DNA of 64,000 nt from a virus (taxonomy: Duplodnaviria; Caudoviricetes). Where the stretch lies: positions 832 through 64,831 of IMG/VR virus record IMGVR_UViG_3300031998_000080. One strand, 5' to 3'. The translations under genes were made by a program, and so were the position numbers. Position 1 is the first letter of the stretch, and each line of letters starts with the position of its first letter. The notes beneath the pieces were generated by a model. The model was not told the origin of the DNA, ran no database searches, and saw only the letters and a list, made by a program, of their open reading frames with translations. Positions 1 to 63,942 of the stretch are shown piece after piece.

Positions 1-36
1 GGGGTAACCAAGTTCAGTAAATTCTTTGTAAGTCAT
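1..36 (-). CDS. Small cassette protein, 5' part only (MTYKEFTELGYP...), runs off the window
   Basis: ATG 9 nt after the CGGCCCTAA motif; frame open to the window edge. Confidence 0.5.
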   Translation of the reverse strand, partial: MTYKEFTELGYP

Positions 37-45
37 ATCAGTCAA

Positions 46-54
46 TTAGGGCCG
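46..54 (-). repeat. Cassette-junction motif CGGCCCTAA followed by TTGACTGAT-ATG
   Basis: Reads CGGCCC TAA T TGA C TGA T ATG on the minus strand. Confidence 0.9.
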
Positions 55-66
55 AAAGTAGATGAG

Positions 67-258
67 TTATTCCTTCGTTTCTACCTTTCTACGGGAAACA
101 CGGGTGACAACGCCACGCAGTTTGTTATCGTGAGGTTCAAGGGGTTCAAAGACCTTTTCAAGTTCTTCGGCTATGACTTCGGGAGTCATAAGGTCTTTTG
201 ATTTCACGGTGATGGTATAGACATACACCGGAAGCGGAAGAGAATTTTCTTTAATCAT
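67..258 (-). CDS. Small cassette protein, paralog of 56932..57090
   Basis: 63 aa; TPEVIAEELEKVFEP...KLRG aligns by eye with HPEVVAEELLNIFDP...KLHG. Confidence 0.75.
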   Translation of the reverse strand: MIKENSLPLPVYVYTITVKSKDLMTPEVIAEELEKVFEPLEPHDNKLRGVVTRVSRRKVETKE

Positions 259-406
259 AGTTCGTTATGCAAATAAATTGTTTGTCATCATCATAAGCGA
301 CGCATTTGGTCTCACCCCACACACCGTGATGAATATCATTGTCGATGAGGACTTCCATTTCCATTGGGAAGTCAAGAAGTTTCTTAATGAGTTCTTTGTT
401 TGTCAT
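251..406 (-). CDS. Small cassette protein (MTNKELIKKLLDFP..., 51 aa)
   Basis: Translated by hand; ATG 11 nt after motif; N-terminus resembles MKVKELIKIL of 2453..2635. Confidence 0.7.
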   Translation of the reverse strand: MTNKELIKKLLDFPMEMEVLIDNDIHHGVWGETKCVAYDDDKQFICITNYD

Positions 407-417
407 ATCTAATTTAA

Positions 418-426
418 TTAGGGCCG
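418..426 (-). repeat. Cassette-junction motif CGGCCCTAA
   Basis: Exact match, 11 nt upstream of ATG at 406. Confidence 0.9.
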
Positions 427-541
427 AAGGTGCGTGTCTTTCTACTGCACTCCTGGGAAATTACTCCGTGGTCTGTCACCCGTAGGTTCAGGGATTCAGG
501 AAAAGACAACTACTATAATCCCTTTTTCGTTTTTCGCACCG
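427..541. ncRNA. Candidate structured non-coding cassette between two motifs
   Basis: No ATG-started ORF on the array strand; nested complementary segments GGTGCG/CGCACC, GTCTTT/AAAGAC, TCCTG/CAGGA and crossing AGGGATT/AATCCCT. Confidence 0.4.
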
Positions 542-550
542 TTAGGGCCG
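542..550 (-). repeat. Cassette-junction motif CGGCCCTAA
   Basis: Exact match; left boundary of the 255-bp near-duplication. Confidence 0.9.
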
Positions 551-558
551 GGAATGAC

Positions 559-738
559 TTACTTCTTCGTCCTCGGGCCGAGTGTTCTGCACATAATCTG
601 CGTAACGAGGCAATCGAACTTCCCTTCCTCATTCAGCACATCGCAAACTGCACAATTAATCTCGTTAAGATACTCCTCGTCTATGCGGAAATCGTCCGGG
701 ATAGACAAGTCGATGATGATTCGTTTGGCTTTACTCAT
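559..738 (-). CDS. Small cassette protein (MSKAKRIIIDLSIPDD..., 59 aa), copy 1
   Basis: Hand translation; 3 of the 5 coding differences from copy 2 are synonymous. Confidence 0.75.
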   Translation of the reverse strand: MSKAKRIIIDLSIPDDFRIDEEYLNEINCAVCDVLNEEGKFDCLVTQIMCRTLGPRTKK

Positions 739-804
739 AGCGGTAGCAAGTTTGGTGAATTTAGACTTTCATAAAGTTGGTATGGATTTATTCGTCAATA
801 TCTT

Positions 805-999
805 TCATATTCTTTTAATTGAAATTTCTACTGCGATGGGGTCATCGTCCCAAGACAGTTCTGGTAAAAACTCGTTCGGTTGTTTCATCCTTCCGTGACC
901 CACCCAATAATCATCTCCGTTCGGATTTGTGAATCTATGTGGGACACCTAAAAAGAAGTTTAGCCTCCCGTTTTCGTCTCTTGCGGCATATCCTTTCAT
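805..999 (-). CDS. Small hypothetical cassette protein
   Basis: 64-aa ORF, ATG 11 nt after motif. Confidence 0.75.
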   Translation of the reverse strand: MKGYAARDENGRLNFFLGVPHRFTNPNGDDYWVGHGRMKQPNEFLPELSWDDDPIAVEISIKRI

Positions 1000-1010
1000 A
1001 ACTCAATCAT

Positions 1011-1019
1011 TTAGGGCCG
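1011..1019 (-). repeat. Cassette-junction motif CGGCCCTAA followed by ATGATTGAGTT-ATG
   Basis: Directly abuts the stop codon of 1020..1349. Confidence 0.9.
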
Positions 1020-1349
1020 TTACTTACCACATTTCTTAAAAATATAAGTATAAGTAGTGTCCATATCTCTACCACTTCTAATAGTTATAGTGGTGTCAAT
1101 TTGAGGGGGAATAGATGTAACAATTTCTATTGGATGTGTCTTTTCGTATACCTCATGGCTATGTTCATTTATTCGTTTAATTAGAAAAATCCATAAACCA
1201 AGCATTGCTATTCCACATACTAATATCAAAACATTTTTGAACGAAAAGCCACAAACATCAGCGTCAATCCATCCATAACAAAAAACTGAAAATCCTAAAA
1301 TATAAAGAAGGACCAGACAAATTGCCAGTATGGTTCCTATGATTGTCAT
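1020..1349 (-). CDS. Hypothetical membrane protein (two predicted TM segments)
   Basis: Two hydrophobic N-terminal stretches. Confidence 0.7.
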   Translation of the reverse strand: MTIIGTILAICLVLLYILGFSVFCYGWIDADVCGFSFKNVLILVCGIAMLGLWIFLIKRINEHSHEVYEKTHPIEIVTSIPPQIDTTITIRSGRDMDTTYTYIFKKCGK

Positions 1350-1351
1350 AG

Positions 1352-1507
1352 CTATTTCGCTTGGTGAAACTTATCGGATATTTCTATCCCAACATTTAAC
1401 TCCGCTTCGTAGGCTTCACAGAGAAGAAGCGTCATTTTCTCAATGAGGGGACGGATGCTTTTCTCATTTTTGTCACGCATGAGTTCGCGTAATTCTTTCT
1501 GTGTCAT
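1352..1507 (-). CDS. Small hypothetical protein (MTQKELRELMRDK..., 51 aa)
   Basis: Hand translation; fills the gap in the operon. Confidence 0.6.
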   Translation of the reverse strand: MTQKELRELMRDKNEKSIRPLIEKMTLLLCEAYEAELNVGIEISDKFHQAK

Positions 1508-1528
1508 TTGTTTTCCTCCTTTCTTGCG

Positions 1529-1744
1529 TTAAGGGCAAGGAAATGAATTGATGTGTTTGATTAGTGTTTCAATAGCATAGGCGAAGTCCTCACTCACTCC
1601 AATCTTCTCCCAATTCTTCGCCCACTCCAAGAGATCGTCCTTGCGAATGTATTCGGTGGCCCCGGGAGAATCTTCCGTATCAAAGTGATTGCTCGGCACA
1701 TTCAGCCACTTGCCGGGAATGTAAATCTTGTCTGGGGTATTCAT
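1529..1744 (-). CDS. Hypothetical phage protein
   Basis: 71-aa ORF in the operon (PDKIYI...TEYIRKD). Confidence 0.7.
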   Translation of the reverse strand: MNTPDKIYIPGKWLNVPSNHFDTEDSPGATEYIRKDDLLEWAKNWEKIGVSEDFAYAIETLIKHINSFPCP

Positions 1745-1745
1745 T

Positions 1746-1907
1746 TCAGTTCTCGATTCTAATGTTAATCACCCACCCCGTGTCGTTACTTCCTGCTGGA
1801 TCAAAAGATATGTCCACATCCCGCCCTTCAAACTTCAGCGGAATATGTGCGGTGTTGAATTGACGCTGACATAAGTCTGCTTTCTGTATCAGTTCGGCGA
1901 GTGTCAT
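1746..1907 (-). CDS. Small hypothetical protein (MTLAELIQKADLCQRQFN..., 53 aa)
   Basis: Hand translation; tightly packed with neighbours. Confidence 0.6.
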   Translation of the reverse strand: MTLAELIQKADLCQRQFNTAHIPLKFEGRDVDISFDPAGSNDTGWVINIRIEN

Positions 1908-1909
1908 GG

Positions 1910-2450
1910 CTACGATTGCTTCAATTGTTCAAGACAGTAGTGGAGTTCTGCGACTTTATCTGCGATGGCAACATACTTATATTTCCGAAGTACATTCTCT
2001 GCGTTCATCAAGTCTTTCATCTGTTCCTCGCTCGGTTTCCAATGAGGCTGGGGGACGGAGGGATTTGAGCCTTTCTTCAAGCCACGCTGAAATGAAACTC
2101 GCGTCCCACTGGTCGGTTCGTTGATACTTTTGAAGGGCATTCTTACAAACAAGGAGATATTGTTCATCCTCCTCGCTCCACTCTGCGGGCTTCTGCTCTT
2201 TCTGCTTTTCGAGCCAAGTGAGCCACGGTTCGTAGATTGACAACATAACCTTGTCATCTTTGTTCATCCTAACAAGGTCTTTACAATGGCCAATCAACTC
2301 CTTCCTTATCCTCTCGTCCTCGCTCTCGCGGAGTTCGGGGAATACGGATTCAAGACAGATTTTCTCCTTATCGGTGCACCCGTCCTTTATCCACTGCGTC
2401 GCGGTTTGCAGGACCGCCTTGTATGATTTCTCGTAGTCAAAATTTTCCAT
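1910..2450 (-). pseudogene. QKPAEWSEEDE-type phage protein with an apparent single-base frameshift at a G5 run (2050-2054)
   Basis: ORF 1977..2450 (...LKSLRP) joins ORF 1910..2257 (QPHWKPSEEQM...) if one base is removed. Confidence 0.6.
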
Positions 2451-2452
2451 AA

Positions 2453-2635
2453 CTATTCCGCTATTGCTTTGATGATGATATCTCCGAAATCGACGGGGGT
2501 TGCGTTTGAGATATGTTCCTCTTTGGTGAGAGGGCGAATGTTGGTTGGTTTATAGAGGTCGTTGACCGCTTGGATGACCACCCTTTTCTCCTCGTCGAAC
2601 TGACCCAAAATCTTTATGAGTTCCTTTACTTTCAT
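2453..2635 (-). CDS. Small hypothetical protein
   Basis: 60-aa ORF, overlaps the upstream gene (ATGA). Confidence 0.7.
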   Translation of the reverse strand: MKVKELIKILGQFDEEKRVVIQAVNDLYKPTNIRPLTKEEHISNATPVDFGDIIIKAIAE

Positions 2636-3000
2636 AATTCGATCTCTTTGCTATATCGTTCGGGAATCTCGACGGTCTCCCCATTCATCGGTTCGGAATA
2701 GTAGTAGTCAAACACCTCGGCGTGTCCGTCCTCCTCATCATCTTTCACCTCCACCGTATCAGCATCGTAAAAGAGGCTGTCAAGAGTGTAGTCATACCTC
2801 GTGTTGTACTTCTCGAATACATCGCCAATCAGTTTCAGCGCCTCGTCAAGAGTGTCAGCCGCCACATCGAAAGTAGCCTCCTGGTAGCACTCATACTCCA
2901 CATCGTAGCATCCGCTACCTCTCCAGTACGGGGGGCAGTTGACATCCTTCACCCAGAAATGACCGAAGGCGCAAGTCTCAATCTTGTATATGTGTTTCAT
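2632..3000 (-). CDS. Acidic hypothetical protein
   Basis: 122-aa ORF in the operon. Confidence 0.75.
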   Translation of the reverse strand: MKHIYKIETCAFGHFWVKDVNCPPYWRGSGCYDVEYECYQEATFDVAADTLDEALKLIGDVFEKYNTRYDYTLDSLFYDADTVEVKDDEEDGHAEVFDYYYSEPMNGETVEIPERYSKEIEL

Positions 3001-3004
3001 TTAT

Positions 3005-3214
3005 TTAAGTTATCTGTAAAATGTCATTCTCTTCTTTTTCAAGCATTTGCTCGTAGAGGATGAATTCTTCATTTGGGTTGTAGTGGTCGTCGTAGTCAGG
3101 ATCAAACGGACTCTTTCCCAGGTTTTTGTTGTGTGGTCGTCGTGTCATTTGAAAACGCTTTAAATTGAACTCGGTAGTTCGGATATTTAACGAGCATGTC
3201 GGTGTAATGTTCAT
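3005..3214 (-). CDS. Small hypothetical protein (true start possibly later, MTRRPHNK)
   Basis: ORF track; DPDYD motif. Confidence 0.55.
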   Translation of the reverse strand: MNITPTCSLNIRTTEFNLKRFQMTRRPHNKNLGKSPFDPDYDDHYNPNEEFILYEQMLEKEENDILQIT

Positions 3215-3305
3215 AGGCTTTCTTTTCGTCGTGGAAGGTCTGCCATGATATAGTGTAATCCAGGTACGAGCCCGGTATGGAGACGATGACGTGGTATAAT
3301 ATCAT
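3102..3305 (-). CDS. Small hypothetical protein
   Basis: 67-aa ORF coupled to the upstream gene. Confidence 0.6.
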   Translation of the reverse strand: MILYHVIVSIPGSYLDYTISWQTFHDEKKAYEHYTDMLVKYPNYRVQFKAFSNDTTTTQQKPGKESV

Positions 3306-3565
3306 AGCCCTTTTGTTAAATTCTTTTCAAGCTCATAGAGAGAACTCATTGCTTTCTCGTAGAATCTATCTACCGAATCTGAATCAAGAACGGCGACATT
3401 CTGTGTCGCCAGAGCTGGATGCACATTTTTCACAACGGTTACTTCCATATCTTCTCTCATTTCATCTTGGATTCCAACGCTGATTACCTCGAAGTCTCGA
3501 GCTGTATCAACGTACTGCTTCATTGCCCAGGCGGGCCTCTCTTGGATTAAATTATTCTCTTTCAT
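3302..3565 (-). CDS. Hypothetical protein
   Basis: 87-aa ORF with ATGA overlaps. Confidence 0.7.
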   Translation of the reverse strand: MKENNLIQERPAWAMKQYVDTARDFEVISVGIQDEMREDMEVTVVKNVHPALATQNVAVLDSDSVDRFYEKAMSSLYELEKNLTKGL

Positions 3566-4152
3566 TTCTTTTCCTCCTCACCCTTGAAGTTGTACTTTGG
3601 CCCCCACGTCGGTACAAACATTCCCTTCTCCTTCTGCGCCTGAATCTCTTTCCACAGCCGTTCGTTCGCCTCCTTGTTCTCCTTCTCTATCTGCCGTGTC
3701 AAGATGCGGTGCGCCTCCAGTTTCTTCTCGGACGCCATGTACGATTTTAGGAAGCCGAGCAGGGTTTTCGGTGTCAGCCCTCGGAACTCCCCGTACACGC
3801 CCGTAACGCCAAGTCTCAACGCCTCTTGGATTTCGACCGAGGTAAGGTTGGAAATGGCGGGATCATCCATCATCGAAGCGTCGAGCACGTCGGTGTCAAT
3901 GGTCATCAGGTCCCATGAGGGAATGTTCTCTGGTCTTGTGTGGACGAGGACGTGGCACGCACCTATCTGTCGGAACAGCCACTGCTTCCGCTTATCCTCG
4001 TCGCCCTGCCGGTATCTCCGTGCGTTCGGGGAGAGAAGGTGCTGTGCGAGCAGTTCGGCAGAGCCGATTCTACTGTTCGTCCGCACCATCTTCCCCGCTT
4101 CCTGACGGAACTCCATAGGCACTTGGACCGCCATATCGGTATCGTTGTTCAT
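3562..4152 (-). CDS. Replication-module protein (possible helicase loader or initiator partner)
   Basis: Directly downstream of the initiator-like gene; function inferred from position only. Confidence 0.45.
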   Translation of the reverse strand: MNNDTDMAVQVPMEFRQEAGKMVRTNSRIGSAELLAQHLLSPNARRYRQGDEDKRKQWLFRQIGACHVLVHTRPENIPSWDLMTIDTDVLDASMMDDPAISNLTSVEIQEALRLGVTGVYGEFRGLTPKTLLGFLKSYMASEKKLEAHRILTRQIEKENKEANERLWKEIQAQKEKGMFVPTWGPKYNFKGEEEKK

Positions 4153-4832: not shown

Positions 4833-5269
4833 CAGAACGGGAGATCGGATTCATCATCCTCGGCGGTCGCCTGCGGTTGGTATGCCGGTGCGCTCGGAGG
4901 GAGTTCGGTCTGCTTCGGCTCGGAGGGTGTCTCTTCCTCCTTCTTGTCGGGGTCGTACACGCCCCACACGTTGTTCTTCCCGAACCACTTGCCATTGTAT
5001 TCACGGGCGGTGGGCGAGTAAGTAACCCGCAGTCTCGCACCAATCTCGGTGGCGAGTACCACGTTCACCTTGTCCACCCCGAAGGCGTTGAACATGATGT
5101 GGTCATCCTTGCCCGTTGCGGTGGTGTACTTGAGGACAAAGTCCACGGACAGCCATTCGTCCCCGTTCCTCGTTCGCCCCGACCTGGGGTCTCCCACCCA
5201 GACGAGCTCTCCCTCGAAGGGCGCTGTGTCATTCGTTTTCATCTTCTTCTTTGCTTTCATTGATTTCAT
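4832..5269 (-). CDS. DUF3127-like OB-fold ssDNA-binding protein
   Basis: GTRNGDEW, FNAFGVDKV, AREYNGKWF motifs and an acidic DDESDLPF tail. Confidence 0.8.
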   Translation of the reverse strand: MKSMKAKKKMKTNDTAPFEGELVWVGDPRSGRTRNGDEWLSVDFVLKYTTATGKDDHIMFNAFGVDKVNVVLATEIGARLRVTYSPTAREYNGKWFGKNNVWGVYDPDKKEEETPSEPKQTELPPSAPAYQPQATAEDDESDLPF

Positions 5270-6140
5270 CTATGTTCTTGTTTTTGAGCAGGAAGGTACG
5301 CCCACGGGCGCCGGACTTCCACGTTGCGAGAGTCTTTCCTTCGTAGATGAGGGACTCGGCTTCGCCCATGTAGAGTTTCAGCGAATCCTTCAATGCGTCC
5401 GCGTCGGTTTCGAGGGCCGCCTTCTGTGTGTTCAGGCTTACGAGGGAGAGCAGATTCGCAACCGCCTCGTCGTCCGCCTCTATGGTGGTGCCCGGGTCGC
5501 TTCCCTTCATCACGAAGTCTGCTACGGAAATGAGTTCCGGCTCTTTCCCGCCGAGGACACAATCGTTCCAGAAGGCGTCCACCTGCTCGCCGATGAAGTT
5601 TGCGAAGGTCTCGTCCCATTCGACGGGTGCGTGTCCGAAGTACCGCCCGTTGGTCAGCCAACAGAGTTCGCACTTATGTATGCCCGTTATGAGCATCTGA
5701 TATTCACATTGTGCGACGTAGTAGACGGGCAGATCGTCTGGGTCGAACTCCATTGAGGACGTCTTGATTTCGAGAAGCATCTTCTCCTTCTTCCCTGACC
5801 ACGGACTTACGCTGTATGCGATGCGGTCGGGCGTGCACTTTCTCCACGGCTTCTCTGCGTCTTGGTAGATGATATCCTTTGCGGACGCTTTGACCGCCCT
5901 GCCACCAGTCTCTTCTTCCCAAAGGGAGACAACTACGGGCTCGAGCAAATGACCCAGACGCATCGCAAGGTTTTCCTCGAGCGGGGGGACCTGCTTTGTC
6001 TTTCGCAGATAGAGACTGAATGGTGTCTCCCAGGGGCTCAGTCCTAAGATTGCGCTCACCTCGGAGGCACCGATTCCGTCCTCTCTCGCCTTGAGCCATT
6101 CGTCATGGCTCGCCGGCTTGATGATGTTGGGTTTCATCAC
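5229..6140 (-). CDS. YqaJ-like viral recombinase exonuclease
   Basis: EWLKAREDGIGASEVSAILGLSPWET, TPDR, EIKT, YYVAQCEYQM motifs. Confidence 0.9.
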   Translation of the reverse strand: MMKPNIIKPASHDEWLKAREDGIGASEVSAILGLSPWETPFSLYLRKTKQVPPLEENLAMRLGHLLEPVVVSLWEEETGGRAVKASAKDIIYQDAEKPWRKCTPDRIAYSVSPWSGKKEKMLLEIKTSSMEFDPDDLPVYYVAQCEYQMLITGIHKCELCWLTNGRYFGHAPVEWDETFANFIGEQVDAFWNDCVLGGKEPELISVADFVMKGSDPGTTIEADDEAVANLLSLVSLNTQKAALETDADALKDSLKLYMGEAESLIYEGKTLATWKSGARGRTFLLKNKNIDEINESKEEDENE

Positions 6141-7024
6141 TCCTGATTTCCGAAGATTTCACCCGTCTCTGTGTCTGCGCCCTCGTCCTCCTTCGCCACG
6201 CGGTTAGCGGAACGGCGGGCCTTCATCGCTTCGACCTGCTCTTTCACGGCGTTCGCCTTTTCCTGCGCCGATTCGGACTGCACCGGCTGTGGCTGTTCGT
6301 CGGGAGTGTTGTCCGCATAGGTGGAGACGTTGTTCGCATCTGTTACGGACTGGTCATCACGGATAGCCTTCTGGAGTTCTGCGGACTTGGGGCAGAATTT
6401 CACGATAAGATTCTTGAGGACGGTCTTGAGGCACATGGCATCAAAATTATCTTTCCATATCCCGTAGCCCTTTTTGAATGTTTGAGAATAGCGCAGGGCG
6501 TGGGCCTTGCACTCTTCCACCGTCCAGTACACGGTCTTTTCAAAGCCATTGACGAGCTTGATGTACGCCATGTAGCCGATTACCTTGTCGGAGGTCTTTG
6601 CGTCCTCGTCGAACACATACTCGCCGGTAAACTTGTTCTTCTTGACAAGTTCCCCTTCGTGCACGATCTCGTTTGCGATGAACTTGACCTGTCCCGTACG
6701 CATGGCGAGTTCGACCCACCCGTTACGCATGATTTGGAACGAGGCGTTCTCTCCGTAGGGGATGACCGCCGCGAATCCCATGTTGCTCTCAATCGGGAGA
6801 CCGAGAGGAACAGACTTGAGCGCCGCGTGGAACACGGACATCGGCTTGCATTTCTGGAGGTTGGTGTCGTTCGCAACGACAGAGATAAGGGAGGTCATAA
6901 AGTTCTCCCTCGATTTCGGCTCTGCGAGTACGTCTGCGATGTACTGCTGTGCGCCCGCCCCGTAGAGTTGGGACTTGAATTTTTGCATCGGTCCCTGCTG
7001 GACCTGCGTGATTTCGTTTGCCAT
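6137..7024 (-). CDS. recT: RecT-family single-strand annealing recombinase
   Basis: LQKCKPMSV, LGLPIESNMGFAAVIPY, MCLKTVLKNLI motifs; paired with YqaJ. Confidence 0.88.
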   Translation of the reverse strand: MANEITQVQQGPMQKFKSQLYGAGAQQYIADVLAEPKSRENFMTSLISVVANDTNLQKCKPMSVFHAALKSVPLGLPIESNMGFAAVIPYGENASFQIMRNGWVELAMRTGQVKFIANEIVHEGELVKKNKFTGEYVFDEDAKTSDKVIGYMAYIKLVNGFEKTVYWTVEECKAHALRYSQTFKKGYGIWKDNFDAMCLKTVLKNLIVKFCPKSAELQKAIRDDQSVTDANNVSTYADNTPDEQPQPVQSESAQEKANAVKEQVEAMKARRSANRVAKEDEGADTETGEIFGNQE

Positions 7025-10220: not shown

Positions 10221-10266
10221 TGCTTGACAGGCAAGAGGTCGGCAGTTCAAATCTGCCAGTCCTCAC
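10221..10266 (+). other. attP core: 3' half of tRNA-Val(GAC)
   Basis: Anticodon arm TGC-TTGACAG-GCA, T-arm GGCAG-TTCAAAT-CTGCC, 3' acceptor half; no 5' half or D-arm; adjacent to integrase. Confidence 0.8.
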
Positions 10267-10397
10267 AACCACCTAACTTATTGGTATTAAGTGCATTACA
10301 AAGGCGGTATAGCCCCGATTCCCACAAAGAATCGGGGTTATTTTGTGCCCCGTTAGTAGGGCAGAATAGGGCATTGTAGGGCATTTGTTTGTCAGTT

Positions 10398-10474: not shown

Positions 10475-11770
10475 ATGGCAAACCTTTATCTTTATCTCGA
10501 CACGAGATATCCCGACCTCGAGGGTCGTGGCACTTTGAAAATGGCGATGACGCACAAGCGAAAGACCTCCTACGAGACGCTGGGCATCCGGCTACTCGCT
10601 GAGGAATGGAACAAGGAACATCAGCAGGTGGTCTCCCGTCCCGACAAGAAATTCCAGAACGTCCTTATCAGGAAACGCATGGCGGAGGCGACGCTCGCCC
10701 TGCAAAGGATAATGATGCGGGACGATTTCGAGAGGCTGGACGCAAAGCAGATTCTCCAGATGATTGTTCGTGGGACGGACACTGCGGACACGATCGAGAC
10801 GGCTGATTACGTCCTCCCCGTCTACAACGAGTACATAACCCTCGCAAAGAAACCGAACACGGCATCCTCCTACCGCTCGTCCCTCCGCAATCTCACGGAG
10901 TTCGAGAAGGACATCGACTCCCTGCGATTCAAGGATATCAGCGTGGCGTGGCTACGCAGGTATCAGAGGTGGCTCGAGGACGAGCGTGGTATGGGGACGA
11001 ACGGGGCGAACGTGTACCTCCGCAACCTCCGCACGGTGTTCAACTACGCCTTGCAGAACGAGTACACGAAGGCAAGATACCCGTTCAAGGATATCGACAT
11101 GAGCACCACCGAGCCGGACAAGCGTTTCGTTCCGTGGGACTTGTTCGTGGAATGGCTGTCTATCCCTATGGACAACGGACGCACCTACTACCGGGACCTT
11201 TTCATGCTGTCCTTCTACCTCTGCGGAATCCGTCCCGTGGATTTGCTGAAGGTCAAGAAGTCGCAGATTGAGCACGGACGGCTCGTCTACCACCCCGAGA
11301 AGCTGAACGGCAGGAAGAAACTCTCAATCAAGATTGAGCCCGAGGCATGGGCTATCATCCGCAAGTACGAGGGGAAGGAGTACATGCTGAACATAATGGA
11401 ACGCAGGACGGACTACAAGGCGTTCATGGCACACTGGAACAAGGCACTCCGAGCAATCGGGCATGACGAGCGGATTCCCCAGCTGTGCGGAAACGGACGC
11501 ACCTACAAGATTGTGAAGCATCACGGGGTGATTCCGTACATCACGGTCTACTATGCGAGGACTTGTTTCGCATCGTTCCTCTACAACGAAATGGACGTTT
11601 CAATGGACGTGATTTCTCAGGCACTCGGGCACAGCAACGGCTCATGCGTAACGAATTTCTACGTCAAGCGTGGCGAGTCGAAGGTGGACGAGGCAAACCG
11701 CTCGTTGATTGACCGGCTGAACGAGGCTCTCTCGCACAAGCACTCGACCCCTGCGTGGAAACCTGCGTAG
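10475..11770 (+). CDS. int: Tyrosine integrase (Bacteroidales type with arm-binding and SAM-like domains)
   Basis: CGIRPVDL, VYYARTCFAS, ALGHS, VTNFYV catalytic motifs. Confidence 0.93.
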   Translation: MANLYLYLDTRYPDLEGRGTLKMAMTHKRKTSYETLGIRLLAEEWNKEHQQVVSRPDKKFQNVLIRKRMAEATLALQRIMMRDDFERLDAKQILQMIVRGTDTADTIETADYVLPVYNEYITLAKKPNTASSYRSSLRNLTEFEKDIDSLRFKDISVAWLRRYQRWLEDERGMGTNGANVYLRNLRTVFNYALQNEYTKARYPFKDIDMSTTEPDKRFVPWDLFVEWLSIPMDNGRTYYRDLFMLSFYLCGIRPVDLLKVKKSQIEHGRLVYHPEKLNGRKKLSIKIEPEAWAIIRKYEGKEYMLNIMERRTDYKAFMAHWNKALRAIGHDERIPQLCGNGRTYKIVKHHGVIPYITVYYARTCFASFLYNEMDVSMDVISQALGHSNGSCVTNFYVKRGESKVDEANRSLIDRLNEALSHKHSTPAWKPA

Positions 11771-13573: not shown

Positions 13574-13629
13574 AATGCTTTTGTGTTAATGGTTAATTGG
13601 CAAGCATAGGCAGGGTCAGCCGCCTATGC
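13574..13629 (-). promoter_or_regulatory. Hairpin-CCAAT leader module (loop class CTGACC)
   Basis: GCATAGGC-GGCTGACCCT-GCCTATGC, then CCAAT, then spacer to ATG. Confidence 0.7.
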
Positions 13630-13753
13630 CCGTAAAGAAGTTCCCCTATTATCTCCCGACAATGAATCGGGGAACTGAACGAATTGTGTAGCACCTCACG
13701 GAGAATCCGAAAGGACTGCGATTCGGAACGGCTCGCAGTCAGCCGTAAGAGTA

Positions 13754-15175
13754 TCAGCAAGCCACCGCAACCTTTCCCTGCCGTATCTCCTTGACCTGCC
13801 ACATATTGTCATTCATAGTCTTTACGATGCTATCGTGAAGGGGAGTGTGCGTATCGTGTTCCCCGTAGCATTGGAGTATCTTGAACGAACGAAGGTCAAT
13901 CTCAATCGTTTCAATGGGATTGTTCTCGGCATTACGGGCGGATAGGATAAGCGAATCCGCCTTGCTGTAATAGCCACAACGGAACACGCAGTGGCTCAAT
14001 GTGTCCCCTTCGTTCTTGAACTCATCTATGCTCTTTAAGCACACGATTGTAAACCCGACCCCTGCGATTGACAAGTCAAAGTATTTCTCTCTCCGTTTGA
14101 TGAACTCTTCCTCGGTCTTTTTCGCTTTCTTCATCTGTTCCTCTGCCTGCCTGCGGTTTTGCTCATCTATCGCCCTTCTCCTTCTGTCCTGCTCAATCGC
14201 AATCTTCCGATTCTGCTCGGCAAGCAACGCTTGGTGTGCATCGTGCAGATTGGCAGGGCAGAGGTACTTTGGATTGTGTATGTCCTTGTTCAAATACCGA
14301 AGCATACAAATCATATCACGCCACTCGTTAATGTTGTCCTCGTTGAAAACGAAGCCGTGTTTCAGTGCGATTCGGATTTGTTGCTGATAGTAACCCAAGT
14401 CCCTGCGGAAGAACTTTGCAACCGCCCAGTTCCCCTGCTTCCACAATGTTTCAAAGAAGGGGTTTTCAGCCATTGACTGAATAATCTGCGTGAGTTTCAT
14501 TCCGTGCAGTGCGTTGAGGTCAATCCCTCTCCGTGCGAGTTCCGCATCAAGGGAGAACTTTGGCATATCGTAATGCTCGGTGTACTCGAAGGTTTCTTCC
14601 ACGCTTACCCCTTCCCCTACGAAATGCCGTGTGTTGGATTTCCACCACCGACCATAGAACATTCCCGCCATTCGTGCGATATAGTGGAATGTCTTTCCAC
14701 CCCTCTCCCAAGTCGCACCGATATCCTCAATGAGAATGTCGGGTTGCTTCCCTGCCTTGTAGGTGGAGGTTATCGCAAAGTATCGTGTGATTTTCCAACT
14801 CCCCATAGTCGCATGGACTGCGACCTCATCTTTGAAAGTCCGTTTCTTGAAACGCCAAAGTTCAATCATCATCGGTCTGCCACAATGGGGGCAAGTCCCC
14901 AAGTGCGACCAACGGATATTCTCCTGCCCCCACTTGGTCTTAATGTAATCGGGATTCTTTCGGTAGTCCTTTACCTCGGAAAGCGGAAACTCCGCACCGC
15001 AGTCCCCACAAAAGTAGGTGTTGTTCTGCTCTGCCCGTTTCCCGTACTTTCCCATACAGACGGAATAACCGAATGGATCGGAAAGGAAAGATTGTGCATC
15101 GCTACCGACCTTTGGTAGCATCTTGTCGAGGAACATAATCTCTGCCCTCTCCATTTCTTTCGTTACCTTTTTCAT
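13754..15175 (-). CDS. PcfJ-like protein
   Basis: C-terminal WRDMICML...DLHDAH, LKSIDEFKNEGDTLSHCV, NPIETIEIDL, QCYGEHD motifs. Confidence 0.85.
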   Translation of the reverse strand: MKKVTKEMERAEIMFLDKMLPKVGSDAQSFLSDPFGYSVCMGKYGKRAEQNNTYFCGDCGAEFPLSEVKDYRKNPDYIKTKWGQENIRWSHLGTCPHCGRPMMIELWRFKKRTFKDEVAVHATMGSWKITRYFAITSTYKAGKQPDILIEDIGATWERGGKTFHYIARMAGMFYGRWWKSNTRHFVGEGVSVEETFEYTEHYDMPKFSLDAELARRGIDLNALHGMKLTQIIQSMAENPFFETLWKQGNWAVAKFFRRDLGYYQQQIRIALKHGFVFNEDNINEWRDMICMLRYLNKDIHNPKYLCPANLHDAHQALLAEQNRKIAIEQDRRRRAIDEQNRRQAEEQMKKAKKTEEEFIKRREKYFDLSIAGVGFTIVCLKSIDEFKNEGDTLSHCVFRCGYYSKADSLILSARNAENNPIETIEIDLRSFKILQCYGEHDTHTPLHDSIVKTMNDNMWQVKEIRQGKVAVAC

Positions 15176-15234
15176 AATGCGTAATGTTTTTAGTTGTTAA
15201 TTGGCACTCCCGTTCCGCAGTCAAGGGAACGGGA
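15176..15234 (-). promoter_or_regulatory. Hairpin-CCAAT leader module (loop class TTGAnTG)
   Basis: TCCCGTTCC-CTTGACTGC-GGAACGGGA, then CCAAT. Confidence 0.7.
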
Positions 15235-15245
15235 ATGAATGTGGG

Positions 15246-16217
15246 TCAGTCGAAGAATCCTGCGAACAAGTCCATTTGCTCTACGGACTTGGCTTGCTCT
15301 CGGCTACCCTTCTTCCCCTCTTTCTCATAGTTCTCCAAGTTAGGTCTTTCCATAGGGACAAACCCTGCGAGAAGGTTGTCCTTCTTTTTCTCCTTCTTGA
15401 CCTTCTTCCCTTCCTCGCTCTTGACCTTTGCCGTGATTGCTTTGGAAATGTCATGCACATTGTCCTTCGGCTTTGGCGGTTGCGGTTTCTCCTTCTTCGG
15501 CTTCGCAGGGGTGCTGGGTGTCTTTGCGACCTTCGCAACCGCACCCGTTACCTTGCGGATTTCGATGAACTCCTCATCGTAGTAGTGGCGAATCAGCGTG
15601 AACATTTCCTCATCGGGGAAGCCGGACAGTCCGAAATTTCCCTGCTGATGCGTCCGTGCGTATTCGTATGCTTCGCCCATAATGTAGTCCGCACACTCTT
15701 GAAGGGATTTCGGCTTCTCGGCTCGGCTCTCCCGTTCCTTTACCACATTGGCAAAGATTTCATCTTCGGCAATCAGTTTCTCATAGAACGGCTTGATTGC
15801 GATGACAAGCGGATTGAACGAGAATCCCTCGGGCAGATTCGGCTTGTAGGTGTCCTTCTTCTCCTTCGGCTTGTCCTTCCCGTCCTTCTTGTCCTCGGTC
15901 TTTTCCTCGGTTTCTTCCTCGGAATCGGTGGATTCCCCGTCAGTTTCCTCGCTGAGAATCTCGTTTTCGGCATCAGCCGTGTCCTCGGCTACGGATTCCT
16001 CGTTCTCGGCAGGGGATTCCTCGGTCTTTTCCTTCCCGATAGCGGAAAGTCCTTTCGACAGGCACTCGGCTACGGCATCTGCGTTGTTGTCGCAGTCGAA
16101 GAACTTGGCGAGGTCTGCGATAGAATCCTCGCCCCAAAGAGCCATAAGCGGAACAATCTCGCTTGTGGGTTTACCCTTGCAGACCGCAAGGATAGTGTAG
16201 ATTTGCTCGGTTTTCAT
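15246..16217 (-). CDS. PcfK-like protein with acidic linker
   Basis: KSLQECADYIMGEA...EEMFTLIRHYYDE and QMDLF tail; upstream of the PcfJ-like gene. Confidence 0.8.
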   Translation of the reverse strand: MKTEQIYTILAVCKGKPTSEIVPLMALWGEDSIADLAKFFDCDNNADAVAECLSKGLSAIGKEKTEESPAENEESVAEDTADAENEILSEETDGESTDSEEETEEKTEDKKDGKDKPKEKKDTYKPNLPEGFSFNPLVIAIKPFYEKLIAEDEIFANVVKERESRAEKPKSLQECADYIMGEAYEYARTHQQGNFGLSGFPDEEMFTLIRHYYDEEFIEIRKVTGAVAKVAKTPSTPAKPKKEKPQPPKPKDNVHDISKAITAKVKSEEGKKVKKEKKKDNLLAGFVPMERPNLENYEKEGKKGSREQAKSVEQMDLFAGFFD

Positions 16218-16274
16218 AAGGCATATTGTATTGGTTTGTATTGGCGAGTAGGGGGAACAATCAAGTCCCCCTAC
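16218..16274 (-). promoter_or_regulatory. Hairpin-CCAAT leader module (loop class TTGAnTG)
   Basis: GTAGGGGGA-CTTGATTGT-TCCCCCTAC, then CCAAT. Confidence 0.7.
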
Positions 16275-16292
16275 CCATAGGGAATCTGCGGA

Positions 16293-16766
16293 TTATCCGT
16301 AAATCAGTTCCCCGAAGAGGATAATTTGCATCAGTGCCTCGGCTTGCGGATTGTCCATTTCTCCGTGATTGTTATGAAAGTTGCGGTAGCACTCGGAAAT
16401 ATAGGCGAGGTCATTTTCCCCGTAGTGGTCATCGGAACGCTTGAAAGTCCCGTCAGCACACTTTTGTAACCCGTCCTTAATGTCTTGCAGGGTAACGAGG
16501 TATTCGGTGTGCCCGTCCTCATCAAATTCGTGTTCCAGAGTCCCGTAGACCTCGCCCTCATCAGCGTTGTAGTCGGTGCAGGTAAGCATCTTCCCTGCGA
16601 GTAGTGCTTTCGCCCATATATCTTCCATGCAGTCGGTTTCCTCAATCTTGAATCCCGTTCGGTTGGAAGCGAATACAGAGAGCCAATTAGAGCCGTAGGT
16701 GGCGGTGCACAACAAGTCCACAAGGTCCTCTTGTGTCAGTTCTTCAATGATAGTCTTTGTTTTCAT
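16293..16766 (-). CDS. Hypothetical early protein
   Basis: 157-aa ORF ending ...ALMQIILFGELIYG. Confidence 0.8.
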   Translation of the reverse strand: MKTKTIIEELTQEDLVDLLCTATYGSNWLSVFASNRTGFKIEETDCMEDIWAKALLAGKMLTCTDYNADEGEVYGTLEHEFDEDGHTEYLVTLQDIKDGLQKCADGTFKRSDDHYGENDLAYISECYRNFHNNHGEMDNPQAEALMQIILFGELIYG

Positions 16767-16778
16767 AATGGTAGGTGT

Positions 16779-17024
16779 TTATGCAGGTAAATCTTCAGTT
16801 TCAGATACCACCGACCTGGGGTGCAGTTCCAAATCGGCTTTGTTCAGAATCTCGTTGTAGAACTTGATGCAGTTACTCGCCTTCTCGCTCGTTATGCCCA
16901 ATTCCCAACGAATGTGGAACAACCCCTGCGGAATCAGCGAGGGGTGTCGCATCTTGATAAACTCGGCTTTGTCAGCCAAGACTTGCAGATAGTTTATCTG
17001 CTTGGTTGTCGCTAAAAGAGCCAT
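16779..17024 (-). CDS. Hypothetical early protein
   Basis: ATTKQINYL motif. Confidence 0.7.
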   Translation of the reverse strand: MALLATTKQINYLQVLADKAEFIKMRHPSLIPQGLFHIRWELGITSEKASNCIKFYNEILNKADLELHPRSVVSETEDLPA

Positions 17025-17083
17025 AATGTGTAGGTATTAAGTGTGTGTATTGGCAGACGGGTAAGGGGTCAGCCTATCCCGTC
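17025..17083 (-). promoter_or_regulatory. Hairpin-CCAAT leader module (loop class CTGACC)
   Basis: GACGGGATAGG-CTGACC-CCTTACCCGTC, then CCAAT. Confidence 0.7.
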
Positions 17084-17100
17084 CGTGATTGCTGATTAGG

Positions 17101-17373
17101 TCAGCAAGTCCAATCGGCAGGGGAAAACACTTGCTCGGTGTCTATATCCTCTCTATCGTAGTCTATCCCGTTGTCCTCGCAGAAATCCTTAATGCAGTCC
17201 GTCATTTCATCATAGAGCGAACTGTCCGCAGTGTGAAGGTCGCATCGTTCAAGGTCTATCCGTGTGAGTGCAAGTCCTTCCCGTTCGTTGAAATAGGGAA
17301 TCATAACCGCACAATAGTTGTAAAGTTCTTCCCGTAGTGTCGCAGTCATATCGAATGGTGTTTTAGAGTTCAA
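17101..17373 (-). CDS. Hypothetical early protein
   Basis: ORF track, operon context. Confidence 0.7.
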   Translation of the reverse strand: MNSKTPFDMTATLREELYNYCAVMIPYFNEREGLALTRIDLERCDLHTADSSLYDEMTDCIKDFCEDNGIDYDREDIDTEQVFSPADWTC

Positions 17374-17548
17374 AACCTATAATCTCGCAGGGTCGGCTAT
17401 CCTCTGCCGTGCTCATCGCAAGAATGTAATACACATTGACAAGGGTGCTTTCAAGTTGTTCCCTCGGAATCCCTTTCAGTCCGTTCGGATTCTCAATCCG
17501 TTCAATCTCGCTTATCGCTTTGCGGATTGCGTCATCTTTCCTATCCAT
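17363..17548 (-). CDS. Hypothetical early protein
   Basis: ORF track, operon context. Confidence 0.65.
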   Translation of the reverse strand: MDRKDDAIRKAISEIERIENPNGLKGIPREQLESTLVNVYYILAMSTAEDSRPCEIIGFEL

Positions 17549-17549
17549 A

Positions 17550-17762
17550 TCAAAACTCGCTTTGAAAAGGAATGTCGGTCAGCAGAACGATATCCTTCGG
17601 GTTTTTGATTGTTACCTTCCAAATGGGAATCAGTTCCGCTTCGTAGAACTGGGACTTGTCCTTGCAGGAGAAGGGGTATTTGTTCCCCACATTGAAAGAT
17701 AGGGTGTCTATCTGTTCATCAGTGAGGTAAAGGGTTATCGGGGTGGGTTTCTTCTGTTTCAT
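17550..17762 (-). CDS. Hypothetical early protein
   Basis: ORF track, operon context. Confidence 0.65.
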   Translation of the reverse strand: MKQKKPTPITLYLTDEQIDTLSFNVGNKYPFSCKDKSQFYEAELIPIWKVTIKNPKDIVLLTDIPFQSEF

Positions 17763-17774
17763 AATCGTATCGGT

Positions 17775-18056
17775 TTATTGTTCTTGGTCAAGGGTGTGTG
17801 CGGTAGTGAAAACCCACGCAATTTTACGCACCCCGTTCGTGTATTCCCGAATCTCATACTCGCCACCAAGTTTAGCAGTTTGGTTGTAACCGAGCCGAAA
17901 TCCGTTACTCAGCGTTCCGTCCTTTTCCCAATCACGGACAGACTTAACATAGAACAATCTTGCTTTGTCATAGTCCGTGAAATACCAACTCCATTGGTTG
18001 TTGTAGCCTTCATTCTCGTTCTTTGAGAATCTTTGATGAATGATAAAGAGTTTCAT
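17775..18056 (-). CDS. Hypothetical early protein
   Basis: ORF track, operon context. Confidence 0.7.
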   Translation of the reverse strand: MKLFIIHQRFSKNENEGYNNQWSWYFTDYDKARLFYVKSVRDWEKDGTLSNGFRLGYNQTAKLGGEYEIREYTNGVRKIAWVFTTAHTLDQEQ

Positions 18057-18158
18057 ATCCGTATCGGTTTTTAGTTCTCGTTTTCGGTACAGATCCAGTC
18101 CAAAATGGCTGAAAAAATGATTGCAGGAATGATAAAGTAGAGCATAGCGGAAAAGGTG

Positions 18159-18392
18159 TTAATATGATTCACAGATGCAGTCCATAACCATACAAGGTTT
18201 CCCGAAAGCGGGAACGCTTGTAAAGTATTCGTGATAGTCGGTGGGACTGATTACGATAAGCCGATTCTTTGCGTACCAATCGGCAATAATGTCAATGTCC
18301 GCATCGGTTATGCCCGTCCAATCATCGTTGATTAACGCACAGAGGGCATAGGTGGGTATTTTTTCGATAGTCCGTTCCATAGCGTTACGCAA
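18159..18392 (-). CDS. Hypothetical early protein
   Basis: IPTYALCALINDDWTGITDAD motif. Confidence 0.7.
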   Translation of the reverse strand: MRNAMERTIEKIPTYALCALINDDWTGITDADIDIIADWYAKNRLIVISPTDYHEYFTSVPAFGKPCMVMDCICESY

Positions 18393-18546
18393 CTTGTCTT
18401 GGTACTGCGATTCTGAACTCCTGCGAAGGGTTGCAGGAATGACGGAGTATCATTTCGCTTTCCGCATCATCTTGCGTGGCGAAACTCCCGTACAAGTGCC
18501 ATTTCTTTTCCTCGGGGCACTTTCCGATTAGCCAAAAATCTTTCAT
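18385..18546 (-). CDS. Small early protein (MKDFWLIGK...)
   Basis: Start chosen at the ATG following the leader module. Confidence 0.65.
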   Translation of the reverse strand: MKDFWLIGKCPEEKKWHLYGSFATQDDAESEMILRHSCNPSQEFRIAVPRQVA

Positions 18547-18603: not shown

Positions 18604-18615
18604 CACAAAAAGGGG

Positions 18616-18924: not shown

Positions 18925-18938
18925 AACGCAGTAGGTTT

Positions 18939-56542: not shown

Positions 56543-56544
56543 TA

Positions 56545-56553
56545 CGGCCCTAA
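56545..56553 (+). repeat. Cassette-junction motif CGGCCCTAA
   Basis: Begins 2 nt after the tail fibre stop codon. Confidence 0.9.
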
Positions 56554-56565
56554 TTAATAGAAATT

Positions 56566-56706
56566 ATGACATTACAAGTAATAAAAGCCAAAGCCAAAGC
56601 CATTCTTTTAAGTGACAATCTCGACTTCCGGGATTACTATGATTTCGTGGAAGAACTTGCTGAAATGGACATCGAAACCGAGCTAAATCCGGCCCTAATT
56701 GATTGA
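56566..56706 (+). CDS. Small cassette protein (MTLQVIKAKAKAILL..., 46 aa) ending inside the next motif
   Basis: Hand translation; reads through CCG GCC CTA ATT GAT and stops at the motif's last TGA. Confidence 0.6.
   Translation: MTLQVIKAKAKAILLSDNLDFRDYYDFVEELAEMDIETELNPALID
56690..56698 (+). repeat. Cassette-junction motif CGGCCCTAA followed by TTGATTGAGAT-ATG
   Basis: Exact match. Confidence 0.9.
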
Positions 56707-56709
56707 GAT

Positions 56710-56916
56710 ATGACTGAAAAAGAAACAAAGATTTTGACGGACTTGGTGGAAAAGTTCGGATTGTATGAGGATGAATGTAGCAACGAAATACATTTCCTCG
56801 CAGAACATAACTTCAATATCCAAAAGGAAGTTGTGGACTTCAAAAGACAGGCATTTCACACCTGTTATCGTGAGTTGCGGAATGTGGTGGAACACCTACA
56901 AAGTAAACAAGAATAA
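56710..56916 (+). CDS. Small cassette protein
   Basis: 68 aa, ATG 11 nt after motif. Confidence 0.7.
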   Translation: MTEKETKILTDLVEKFGLYEDECSNEIHFLAEHNFNIQKEVVDFKRQAFHTCYRELRNVVEHLQSKQE

Positions 56917-56931
56917 TTCTATACCAACTTT

Positions 56932-57090
56932 ATGAAAGTCGTTCATTTTACCTTCGCCATCGAAACGCCAGATGCCATCCACCCGGAGGTGGTGGCAGAA
57001 GAACTGCTGAACATCTTCGACCCGTTCGGGGAAGATGGGAAACTGCACGGAACAATTATCGAAGTTAAGTCCGAAGATTGGAACAAGTAA
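56932..57090 (+). CDS. Small cassette protein (MKVVHFTFAIETP..., 52 aa), paralog of 67..258
   Basis: Hand translation and alignment by eye. Confidence 0.7.
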   Translation: MKVVHFTFAIETPDAIHPEVVAEELLNIFDPFGEDGKLHGTIIEVKSEDWNK

Positions 57091-57098
57091 GCCACTCT

Positions 57099-57119
57099 CT
57101 GCCCTAATCGACTGACTTG
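57099..57119 (+). repeat. Variant terminal motif CTGCCCTAATCGACTGACTT
   Basis: Shares GCCCTAAT.GACTGACTT with 63528..63547. Confidence 0.7.
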
Positions 57120-57197
57120 GGAACGCCGAAAACCGCGGGTGTACGGCGCGGCGAGTAGGCTTCCCTCTTAATAAACACACATAAAAGGCAAAGGAAT

Positions 57198-63527: not shown

Positions 63528-63547
63528 AAGTCAGTCAATTAGGGCCG
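63528..63547 (-). repeat. Terminal cassette motif CGGCCCTAATTGACTGACTT
   Basis: Exact core; followed by a GC-rich segment and a U-run instead of an ATG. Confidence 0.9.
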
Positions 63548-63552: not shown

Positions 63553-63735
63553 TTATCCAATATAATTTGGATGAGTGCATATAACGAAGTTTAATCCCGT
63601 TCCGTGGTTATGTCCACACTTCCTGCAAGAAGAAGTACCGACAAATCTATCTTCGTAGAATGGACATTTCGTTAATGAATGTTTACCTTCGGTTTCATAA
63701 GGCATTTTGCCTGTATAAGTCCCATTATCTTTCAT
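63553..63735 (-). CDS. Small Cys-rich cassette protein (MKDNGT...)
   Basis: CPF...VGTSSCRKCGH motif; flanked by motifs on both sides. Confidence 0.75.
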   Translation of the reverse strand: MKDNGTYTGKMPYETEGKHSLTKCPFYEDRFVGTSSCRKCGHNHGTGLNFVICTHPNYIG

Positions 63736-63745
63736 ATTCGTTCAA

Positions 63746-63754
63746 TTAGGACCG
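63746..63754 (-). repeat. Variant cassette motif CGGTCCTAA
   Basis: One mismatch; left boundary of duplicate copy 2. Confidence 0.85.
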
Positions 63755-63762: not shown

Positions 63763-63942
63763 TTACTTCTTCGTCTTCGGGCCGAGTGTTCTGCACATAA
63801 TCTGCGTAACGAGGCAATCGAACTTCCCTTCCTCGTTCAGCACATCGCAAACTGCACAATTAATCTCGTTAAGGTACTCCTCGTCTATGCAAAAATCGTC
63901 CGGGATAGACAAGTCGATGATGATTCGTTTGGCTTTACTCAT
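63763..63942 (-). CDS. Small cassette protein (MSKAKRIIIDLSIPDD...), copy 2
   Basis: Differs from copy 1 by R>C, R>K and three synonymous changes. Confidence 0.75.
   Translation of the reverse strand: MSKAKRIIIDLSIPDDFCIDEEYLNEINCAVCDVLNEEGKFDCLVTQIMCRTLGPKTKK

Follow-up and report, generated by a model that had tools for sequence, protein, structure and literature searches.

A short stop-and-restart element at small-gene junctions of probable Bacteroidales phages and its candidate role as a recombination boundary

It has long been asked how phage genomes acquire their mosaic structure, and one view explains it by illegitimate recombination followed by selection. For the boundary-sequence idea, to our knowledge, clear natural examples are wanting outside the promoter(early) stem-loop elements (PeSLs) of T4-type phages. 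Here we describe an element of about 24 nt, built around the 9-nt core CGGCCCTAA, which is repeated at the junctions of small genes in a phage genome from IMG/VR (IMGVR_UViG_3300031998_000080). The analysed window comprises 64,000 nt, bases 832-64831 of this single 64,831-bp virus contig, and unless stated otherwise all positions are those of the window. With a probability of roughly 0.55 we read the element as a translational stop/restart linker which doubles as a portable boundary for recombination. It offers an explicit 24-nt boundary common to phages that share almost no other genes, with base-exact joints of insertion, deletion and replacement, and this makes the boundary-sequence model directly testable in the gut and rumen phages of Bacteroidales.

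Judged by analogy, the closest described system is the PeSL. In T4-type phages these elements flank ORFans and mediate insertion, deletion and replacement, with mini-circles and without a dedicated recombinase (PMC2839356). The likeness (PMC2839356, PMC4122927) lies in a repeated intergenic element that flanks ORFans in hyperplastic regions and carries expression signals, in the alternation of one copy in one phage with a gene and two copies in a close relative (here the contigs L003 and L024, and the tail-fibre/holin series, both described below), and in exchange between copies without a dedicated recombinase. The build is different: a PeSL measures about 100 bp and combines a strong sigma-70 promoter with a terminator stem-loop and a Shine-Dalgarno (SD) sequence, whereas the present element has about 24 nt, is apparently promoterless and consists of a three-frame stop and a restart. 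Hairpins follow only its terminal copies, and the phages are probably temperate ones of Bacteroidales. The lambdoid boundary ("linker") sequences, summarised in PMC3029335, are likewise short homologies at gene boundaries which enable module shuffling by general recombination; at the mosaic joints of most phages such sequences cannot be found (PMC3029335). In contrast to the lambdoid proposal, one explicit and strongly conserved sequence is placed here at many joints, across unrelated backbones.

An earlier sequence-only reading of the window had reported nine copies of the motif, all on the coding strand and at or just past a gene end, and had likened them to an integron array. Recounting at the named sites returned the same nine: seven exact copies of CGGCCCTAA (minus strand at 46, 418, 542, 1011 and 63539, plus strand at 56545 and 56690) and two copies with one mismatch, 63746 (CGGTCCTAA) and 57099 (CTGCCCTAA). 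Dinucleotide shuffles of the window give an expectation of 0.43 ± 0.64 exact copies and none of 100 shuffles reached seven, so the comparison with a shuffled background which that reading had proposed speaks for the motif; the full 64,831-bp contig holds no CGGCCCTAA beyond the copies in the window. The class of one-mismatch matches is overall at chance in the window (15 seen, 12 expected). The copies at 63746 and 57099 are nevertheless genuine members of the family and share with the exact copies the downstream bases of the 3' half; the remaining matches of this class (16687, 36580, 39922, 52491, 55240 and 63776) are without this 3' context. All nine copies belong to two arrays of small genes; each has the orientation of the coding strand and coincides with the end of an open reading frame (ORF) or comes just past it. 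Six of them precede an ATG at the spacing noted earlier (9 nt for 46, 10 nt for 63746, 11 nt for 418, 1011 and 56690, 12 nt for 56545), and the copies at 542, 57099 and 63539 are not followed by one. The junction feature is genuine, non-random and particular to these phages. The tRNA and Rfam scans of the window, as well as a search of GenBank phages with its positions 1-4000, gave no match, and the literature texts in which the 9-mer occurs turned out to concern primers and constructs without any relation to it.

The consensus was obtained by alignment of the window copies and then of 70 non-redundant copies from related contigs. It reads tAA..A...A.TTy-CGGCCCTAA-TTGAyTGA-nTT-ATG-A, and in its short form (T)TyCGGCCCTAA-TTGAyTGA-nTT-ATG, with the ATG 11 nt after the TAA. 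The spacing of TAA, TGA and TGA closes all three frames within 11 nt, and the lowest conservation falls at +9, +13 and +17, where single bases separate the stops. When copies were ascertained by the 3' half alone (TAATTGAYTGA), CGGCCC stood ahead of it in 49 of 63 non-redundant copies, the others carrying close core variants such as CGGTCC, CGGCTC, AACCCC or TTACCC. When they were ascertained by the core only, 15 of 28 copies closed all three frames against 1.4 expected. Variant triplets are often still stops, with TAA or TAG in place of TGA, at +10 (5/7, p = 3e-4) and at +14 (4/15, p = 0.08), and from these alignments the stops in all three frames seem to be under selection. Of 55 upstream ORFs with a length of 30 aa or more in the whole family, 53 terminate in the interval from -15 to +16 relative to the core; in twenty cases the ORF uses the stops of the element itself, with about equal use of the frames (8/5/7).

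Two forms of the element can be distinguished. In the a-type (37/70 copies) the ATG of an ORF of 34-225 aa follows within 13 nt, in 25 copies at exactly 11 nt. The b-type (33/70, usually ...TTGACTGACTT) has no ORF after it and mostly a hairpin within about 10-25 nt, and several kinds of these hairpins recur in different contigs. Mean fold z-scores are -1.33 for b-type tails versus +0.31 for a-type tails. The terminal tails and the 115-nt insert of the window itself fold no better than shuffles (z -1.2, -1.4 and -1.1), so only the contrast across the family is informative. A purely translational role had been questioned on account of the three copies without an ATG; this objection does not hold, as two of the three are array-terminal with hairpins, the form seen in 33 of the 70 copies. 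Among these 70 there is no covarying or complementary stem around the core, the element being asymmetric and not an inverted repeat, and the idea of a core-enclosing stem (AATCA/TGATT) was rejected for lack of covariation.

Scans for sigma-70-type promoters and T-tailed terminators revealed no enrichment, though the latter scan misses the hairpins, which have no T runs. The Bacteroidetes -7 box (TAnnTTTG) is absent from the arrays except for one within the 60-aa ORF, without a -33 partner; upstream of -15 there is no conservation and no -33/-7 Bacteroidetes promoter consensus. Judged by these scans the cassettes appear promoterless. The element consensus contains neither GGAG nor AGGA, and SD-like cores are scarce in this genome (10/77 ORFs), as expected for a phage of Bacteroidota, since translation in Bacteroidetes is SD-independent (PMC6847099).

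Comparison with related contigs revealed that gene content changes at the element, as the sequence-only reading had anticipated, and does so base-exactly. Of the two findings which that reading had named as refuting, an equal frequency of the motif in the rest of the genome and gene-content differences that break away from it, neither was made: the motif is confined to the arrays, and the breaks fall at it. The stretch 542-1019, with the 64-aa and 59-aa genes, is 97% identical at the nt level to a part of G001, a 59.8-kb contig with nine copies on one strand in two clusters. The outer edges of two cores delimit the match, whose left edge is the element at 997..1019, and the neighbours differ on both sides; in these phages a 691-aa conserved virion-module protein, encoded beside the portal gene and without a Pfam family, has an identity of just 31-33%. 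Contigs L003 and L024, from different metagenomes, have 100% identical flanks of 3444 and 123 nt and differ by a 238-nt one-ORF unit, present only in L003 and flanked by the 23-nt direct repeat CCCTAATTGATTGAGATATGAAA; the ORF ends at the third stop of the element. In the pair G005 and L030, the space between two copies is filled by a 56-aa gene in one contig and by an unrelated 98-aa gene in the other, with flanks of 99% and 95% identity. At the tail-fibre/holin locus, L066, L067 and L068 have no unit and one copy, L063 has one unit and two copies, and G001 three units and four copies, while the window carries three genes with three copies and one different junction. Copy number equals units plus one, and some relatives represent the empty site with a single copy. 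In the comparison of the window with the close relatives L063 and L021, homology is lost at about 54,021, within the tail-fibre gene, and is back at 57,085, by the terminal copy; this suggests that the receptor-binding end and the cassettes (54021-57085) act as one replaceable module.

The same tendency was seen in breakpoint statistics, calculated on loci which are not phylogenetically independent and were gathered because they bear the motif: 49 of 299 homology breakpoints fell within 25 nt of it against 4.1 expected, and breakpoints were found at 30 of 40 motif junctions (75%) compared with 78 of 274 other gene ends (28%; odds ratio 7.5, p = 3e-8) and with 36 of 71 neighbouring small-gene junctions (51%; odds ratio 2.9, p = 0.016). 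Block ends cluster: blocks lying upstream end mostly at +8 to +26, those lying downstream at -13 to +5.

If the element works as we propose, TAA-N-TGA-N-TGA would end translation of the upstream ORF in the mRNA in any frame and let the ribosome go 3-14 nt ahead of the next ATG, and a promoterless small gene within a long operon could be translated by termination-reinitiation on host ribosomes that ignore SD sequences. At the end of an array it would halt ribosomes before a hairpin, likely a terminator. Such an all-frame stop with a restart may be a natural way to express foreign promoterless genes where SD recognition is lacking, and the element could become a part for engineering Bacteroides operons. 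On the DNA level, the comparisons show exchange at the 13-24 identical bases between unrelated genes, which would act as a portable boundary of homology. Copies in one genome, or in phages and prophages that share a cell, would recombine with each other and so delete, insert or replace a gene together with its linker, and the exchanged units would leave reading frames and expression intact. Host general recombination, an annealase such as RecT/YqaJ where present, or microhomology with selection might do the work. The outcome would be two cassette arrays whose content turns over much faster than the backbone, and the motif after the tail-fibre gene would form the right-hand boundary for swapping the receptor-binding end. 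The translational and the recombination role probably coexist and reinforce each other.

Several observations weigh against this interpretation. Exact identity between copies has a median of 13 nt and reaches 23 nt in 4% of pairs; minimal efficient pairing segments are 23-27 bp for Red-beta and 31-34 bp for RecA (quoted in PMC3945230), so general recombination at the element should be rare, an exception being copies of the same subclass, which share 23-24 nt, as in the L003 repeat. The invariant GC-rich CGGCCC is given no function by the stop/restart model. Compared with neighbouring junctions that lack the motif, breakpoints are only modestly enriched (p = 0.016), in loci neither independent nor collected blindly to the motif, and of the 13 module replacements in the data set 11 are flanked by the motif on neither side. 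Furthermore, the same arrays contain a different, "type-B" junction as well as MKV* scars (see below), which indicates that recombination is not limited to the motif.

The best surviving alternative, in our opinion unlikely, is that the element is purely an expression signal, for translation coupling, RNA processing or the binding of a regulator, and that breakpoints merely mark gene boundaries, with incoming genes bringing the motif along. The fixed spacing to the ATG and the selected stops, used in all frames, agree with it, as do the shortness of the identity between copies in view of the pairing minima (PMC3945230) and the breakpoints at 51% of the non-motif junctions in the same arrays. 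A precedent exists in the start-associated sequences (SASs) of cluster K mycobacteriophages, whose function is likewise unknown: they too are asymmetric, short and uniformly oriented, stand a few nt before the ATG of unrelated genes, and are phage-specific and absent from the host genome (PMC3203893). The SAS, however, contains an SD core and always stands before a start, whereas the present element has no SD, is linked with stops no less than with starts and in half of its copies (33/70) has no downstream gene, a point against the alternative as well; SASs were not reported as recombination joints (PMC3203893). The nature of the joints speaks against the alternative. The L003/L024 indel, with its perfect 23-nt repeat at the ends and identical flanks, and the core-to-core block in phages whose core proteins are 31-33% identical are predicted by recombination between copies, while boundary selection alone predicts no base-exact, repeat-flanked joints. 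There is also, a diverged integrase apart, no phage-encoded factor common to all six motif-bearing phages.

Beyond the combined linker and boundary we see a small chance for a bolder version, a phage-borne cassette platform of a kind not yet described. In it, a host or integrase-family enzyme or a short-homology pathway would act on the 9-nt core, the stop/restart would make the genes plug-and-play, and unrelated Bacteroidales phages would draw on a communal pool that includes receptor-binding modules.

A slim chance is left for an integron-like site-specific system, in which a recombinase or nuclease, encoded by phage, host or some other element, would recognise the 9-nt core and insert or excise the units. 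This comes near to the claim of the sequence-only reading, and a good part of that description stood: the units appear promoterless, they are gained, lost and replaced base-exactly, and sites outnumber cassettes by one, empty sites being single-copy. As in integrons, arrays consist of mostly single promoterless small ORFs with a repeated site and unrelated, exchangeable cargo. Crossovers map to the 9-13-nt core, variable flanking bases travel with the adjacent gene, and the core is near-invariant although the homology is too short for standard recombination. What found no support is the integron machinery. No IntI with attI is located next to the arrays, no recombinase of any kind adjoins them, nor does an integrase in G001-G005, and no attC-like hairpin or inverted repeat was found across the 70 copies; the site has 9-24 nt versus 57-141 nt in integrons, and the joints are often imprecise. 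Resemblance to integrons is one of layout only. Features of miniature inverted-repeat transposable elements or insertion sequences are missing as well, with no inverted repeats and with units bounded by direct motif copies.

The two recombinases proposed earlier fare no better. The tyrosine integrase (10475-11770, with Arm-DNA-bind_5, SAM_5 and Phage_integrase domains) is the sole tyrosine recombinase of the phage, and an integrase is the only protein family common to the six complete or near-complete motif-bearing phages, which could favour it. Its homologues are, however, only 22-66% identical, and the enzyme of the window is of an ordinary phage type, 9.5 kb away from array 1 and adjoining a tRNA-type attP without the motif. 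RecT and YqaJ are present here, but RecT is otherwise found only in the closest relative G002, which has a single terminal copy and no array 1; no homologue exists in 4 of the 5 complete motif-bearing relatives, and RecT was rejected as a universal driver. The truncated core at 542, degenerate cores (AACCCC, TTACCC) and scars of gene starts indicate imprecise events driven by homology or microhomology, not precise site-specific ones. The process that we favour is infrequent recombination, either general or helped by an annealase, at a linker conserved for its function, a dedicated enzyme being a minority possibility.

That the element is a repressor or silencer site blocking read-through into accessory genes in the manner of the L5 stoperators, or a promoter used by some uncommon polymerase or sigma factor, is very improbable: it is indeed asymmetric, always co-oriented with transcription and placed in short intergenic spaces, and TTGAYTG occurs also in hairpin loops upstream of genes in a 13.5-19.2-kb operon, but its copies are limited to the two arrays, whereas the repressor-bound stoperators are spread in many copies over both genome arms, the identical 17-mer is found in phages with unrelated repressors and backbones, variant copies retain the stop codons and not the sequence, the promoter consensus and upstream conservation are absent as stated above, and hairpins directly follow the terminal copies.

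The distribution of the element was followed with the 17-mer CGGCCCTAATTGAYTGA, which matched 41 IMG/VR loci, its reversed-pattern control matching none. About 34 of the 41 loci have the family context, often with several copies each, and a relaxed pattern brings further loci. Contigs L002, L004, L012, L015, L019, L039 and L040, in which the 17-mer lies in a palindromic GGAACAA/poly-C region, were treated as unrelated and excluded. This group (L002 8560-8680 etc.) has AGGAGG ribosome-binding sites, two divergent 17-mers and poly-C/G runs; the region could be an origin or operator, and the motif match may be coincidental. In 596 Gb of prokaryote genomes 21 matches were obtained, 19 of them isolated chance matches in unrelated taxa, without family context. 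The other two are on small contigs of a metagenome-assembled genome (MAG) of ruminal Candidatus Cryptobacteroides (Bacteroidales) and have the phage-family context. As the 2.1-Mb MAG contains no copy besides these two, so that the presumed host chromosome is free of it, the element is phage-borne, and its interpretation as a general host signal was rejected. The carriers are probably temperate phages of Bacteroidales in the rumen.

The phage of the window encodes an S24 repressor, a tyrosine integrase, RecT and YqaJ. Positions 10225-10275, by the integrase gene, resemble the T-arm and acceptor 3' end of a tRNA (GGCAGTTCAAATCTGCC...ACAACCA), do not contain the motif, and by this resemblance are probably the attP core; the phage would then integrate into a tRNA gene. 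The repressor, together with the integrase beside this attP, marks the phage as temperate. Relatives retrieved via a 157-aa gene were too distant to inform.

Coordinates of the arrays and their parts are given in Table 1.

Table 1. Junction elements, genes and other features of the two arrays in the window
Feature	Position	Strand	Remarks
a-type element	34..54	-	CGGCCCTAA + TTGACTGAT + ATG of 134-aa gene; TAA/TGA/TGA, three frames closed
a-type element	404..426	-	core + TTAAATTAGAT + ATG of 51-aa gene
core only	542..550	-	8 nt past stop of 59-aa gene; without 3' half; homology of the duplicate ends here
a-type element	997..1019	-	directly after stop of 109-aa gene, ahead of ATG of 64-aa gene
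b-type terminal element	63528..63547	-	CGGCCCTAATTGACTGACTT, no ATG; then GC-rich foldable stretch and T run
a-type element	63733..63754	-	one-off core CGGTCCTAA + ATG of 60-aa gene
a-type element	56545..56568	+	2 nt past stop of 1104-aa GDPD-domain tail-fibre-like gene; ATG of 46-aa gene
a-type element	56690..56712	+	46-aa ORF crosses core and ends at third stop TGA 56704-56706; next ATG 56710
b-type terminal element	57099..57118	+	one-off core CTGCCCTAA + TCGACTGACTT; L063/L021 homology resumes
hairpin after terminal copy	57119..57165	+	GGGAAC...GGCTTCCC; upstream of holin gene
134-aa cassette gene, 5' end	1..36	-	runs past window start into contig
63-aa cassette gene	67..258	-	paralogue of 56932-57090
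51-aa cassette gene	251..406	-	
ORF-less 115-nt unit	427..541	-	between two cores; fold z -1.06, unremarkable
59-aa cassette gene, copy 1	559..738	-	
type-B junction	764..793	-	GAATAA..ATACCAACTTTATGAAAGTC; yields MKV* only, scar of gene start
64-aa cassette gene	805..999	-	98% aa identity in G001
109-aa predicted membrane protein	1020..1349	-	last gene before first motif junction of array 1
46-aa cassette gene	56566..56706	+	
68-aa cassette gene	56710..56916	+	
type-B junction	56911..56940	+	ahead of 52-aa gene
52-aa cassette gene	56932..57090	+	paralogue of 67-258
60-aa cassette gene	63553..63735	-	
59-aa cassette gene, copy 2	63763..63942	-	96.6% aa identity to copy 1
YqaJ exonuclease (5229-6137) and RecT annealase (6137-7024)	5229..7024	-	candidate helpers of short-homology exchange; lacking in most motif-bearing relatives

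The cargo was found as described before, namely ORFs of 46-109 aa with one duplicate, one paralogue pair and one non-coding insert; none belongs to a Pfam family or to a PHROG of known function. The duplicate gene lies inside a 96% identical repeat (533-796 and 63737-64000), and the paralogues (67-258 and 56932-57090) have 39% identity over 41 aa (pairwise E = 2e-10). The view of the 115-nt insert as a decayed terminal module was rejected, since a by-eye match of about 13/15 nt was not recovered by alignment and is too weak. Located at classical moron and lysogenic-conversion positions, the cassettes form a catalogue of small phage accessory proteins.

Array 1 closes the early operon that is read leftward, past the RecT/YqaJ genes. 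It leaves the contig at its start and resumes at its end, and the contig stops inside the duplicate of 533-796. This repeat is probably where the assembly was interrupted, and array 1 is therefore likely continuous across the ends of a circular or permuted genome. Array 2 lies between the tail-fibre-like gene and the holin/amidase genes, and the composite of terminal copy and hairpin at 57099-57165 is found also in L063, L021, L033 and L031.

The type-B junction, GAATAA..ATACCAACTTTATGAAAGTC, was observed in both arrays, at 764-793(-), 63968-63997(-) and 56911-56940(+), and at about 6600 in L028. The MKV* at 764-793 is a 3-codon remnant of the gene that is intact at 56932, and this remnant suggests that deletions have left scars and that the two arrays have exchanged material.

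With regard to terminal copies, a variant with an extra T in the core, tcGGCCTCTAATTGACTGA, was noticed in L007 (3094), L020 (4623), L027 (7985) and L034 (7152), each time on the strand opposite to the main arrays and with a stretch resembling a hairpin behind it; these may be terminal copies that have diverged where convergent operons end. At about 505-560 of L026 two facing terminal copies (TAATTGACTGA...TCAGTCAATTA) jointly form a hairpin, which may be a bidirectional terminator made of the element itself.

Outside the arrays, the minus strand at 13574-19300 carries six genes (ATGs at 13573, 15175, 16217, 17024, 18546 and 19190), each behind a GC-rich hairpin. The stems of these hairpins differ, the loop is CTGACC or TTGA(C/T/A)TG, and then follow (G)CCAAT, about 25 nt and ..cattATG. 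In its TTGAYTG form the loop agrees with the 3' half of the junction element, and the arrangement resembles another leader system repeated within the same phage. Finally, an ORF of 5,359 aa (27218-43297) takes up a quarter of the genome and has homologues in G001, G003 and G004 that are 26-27% identical.

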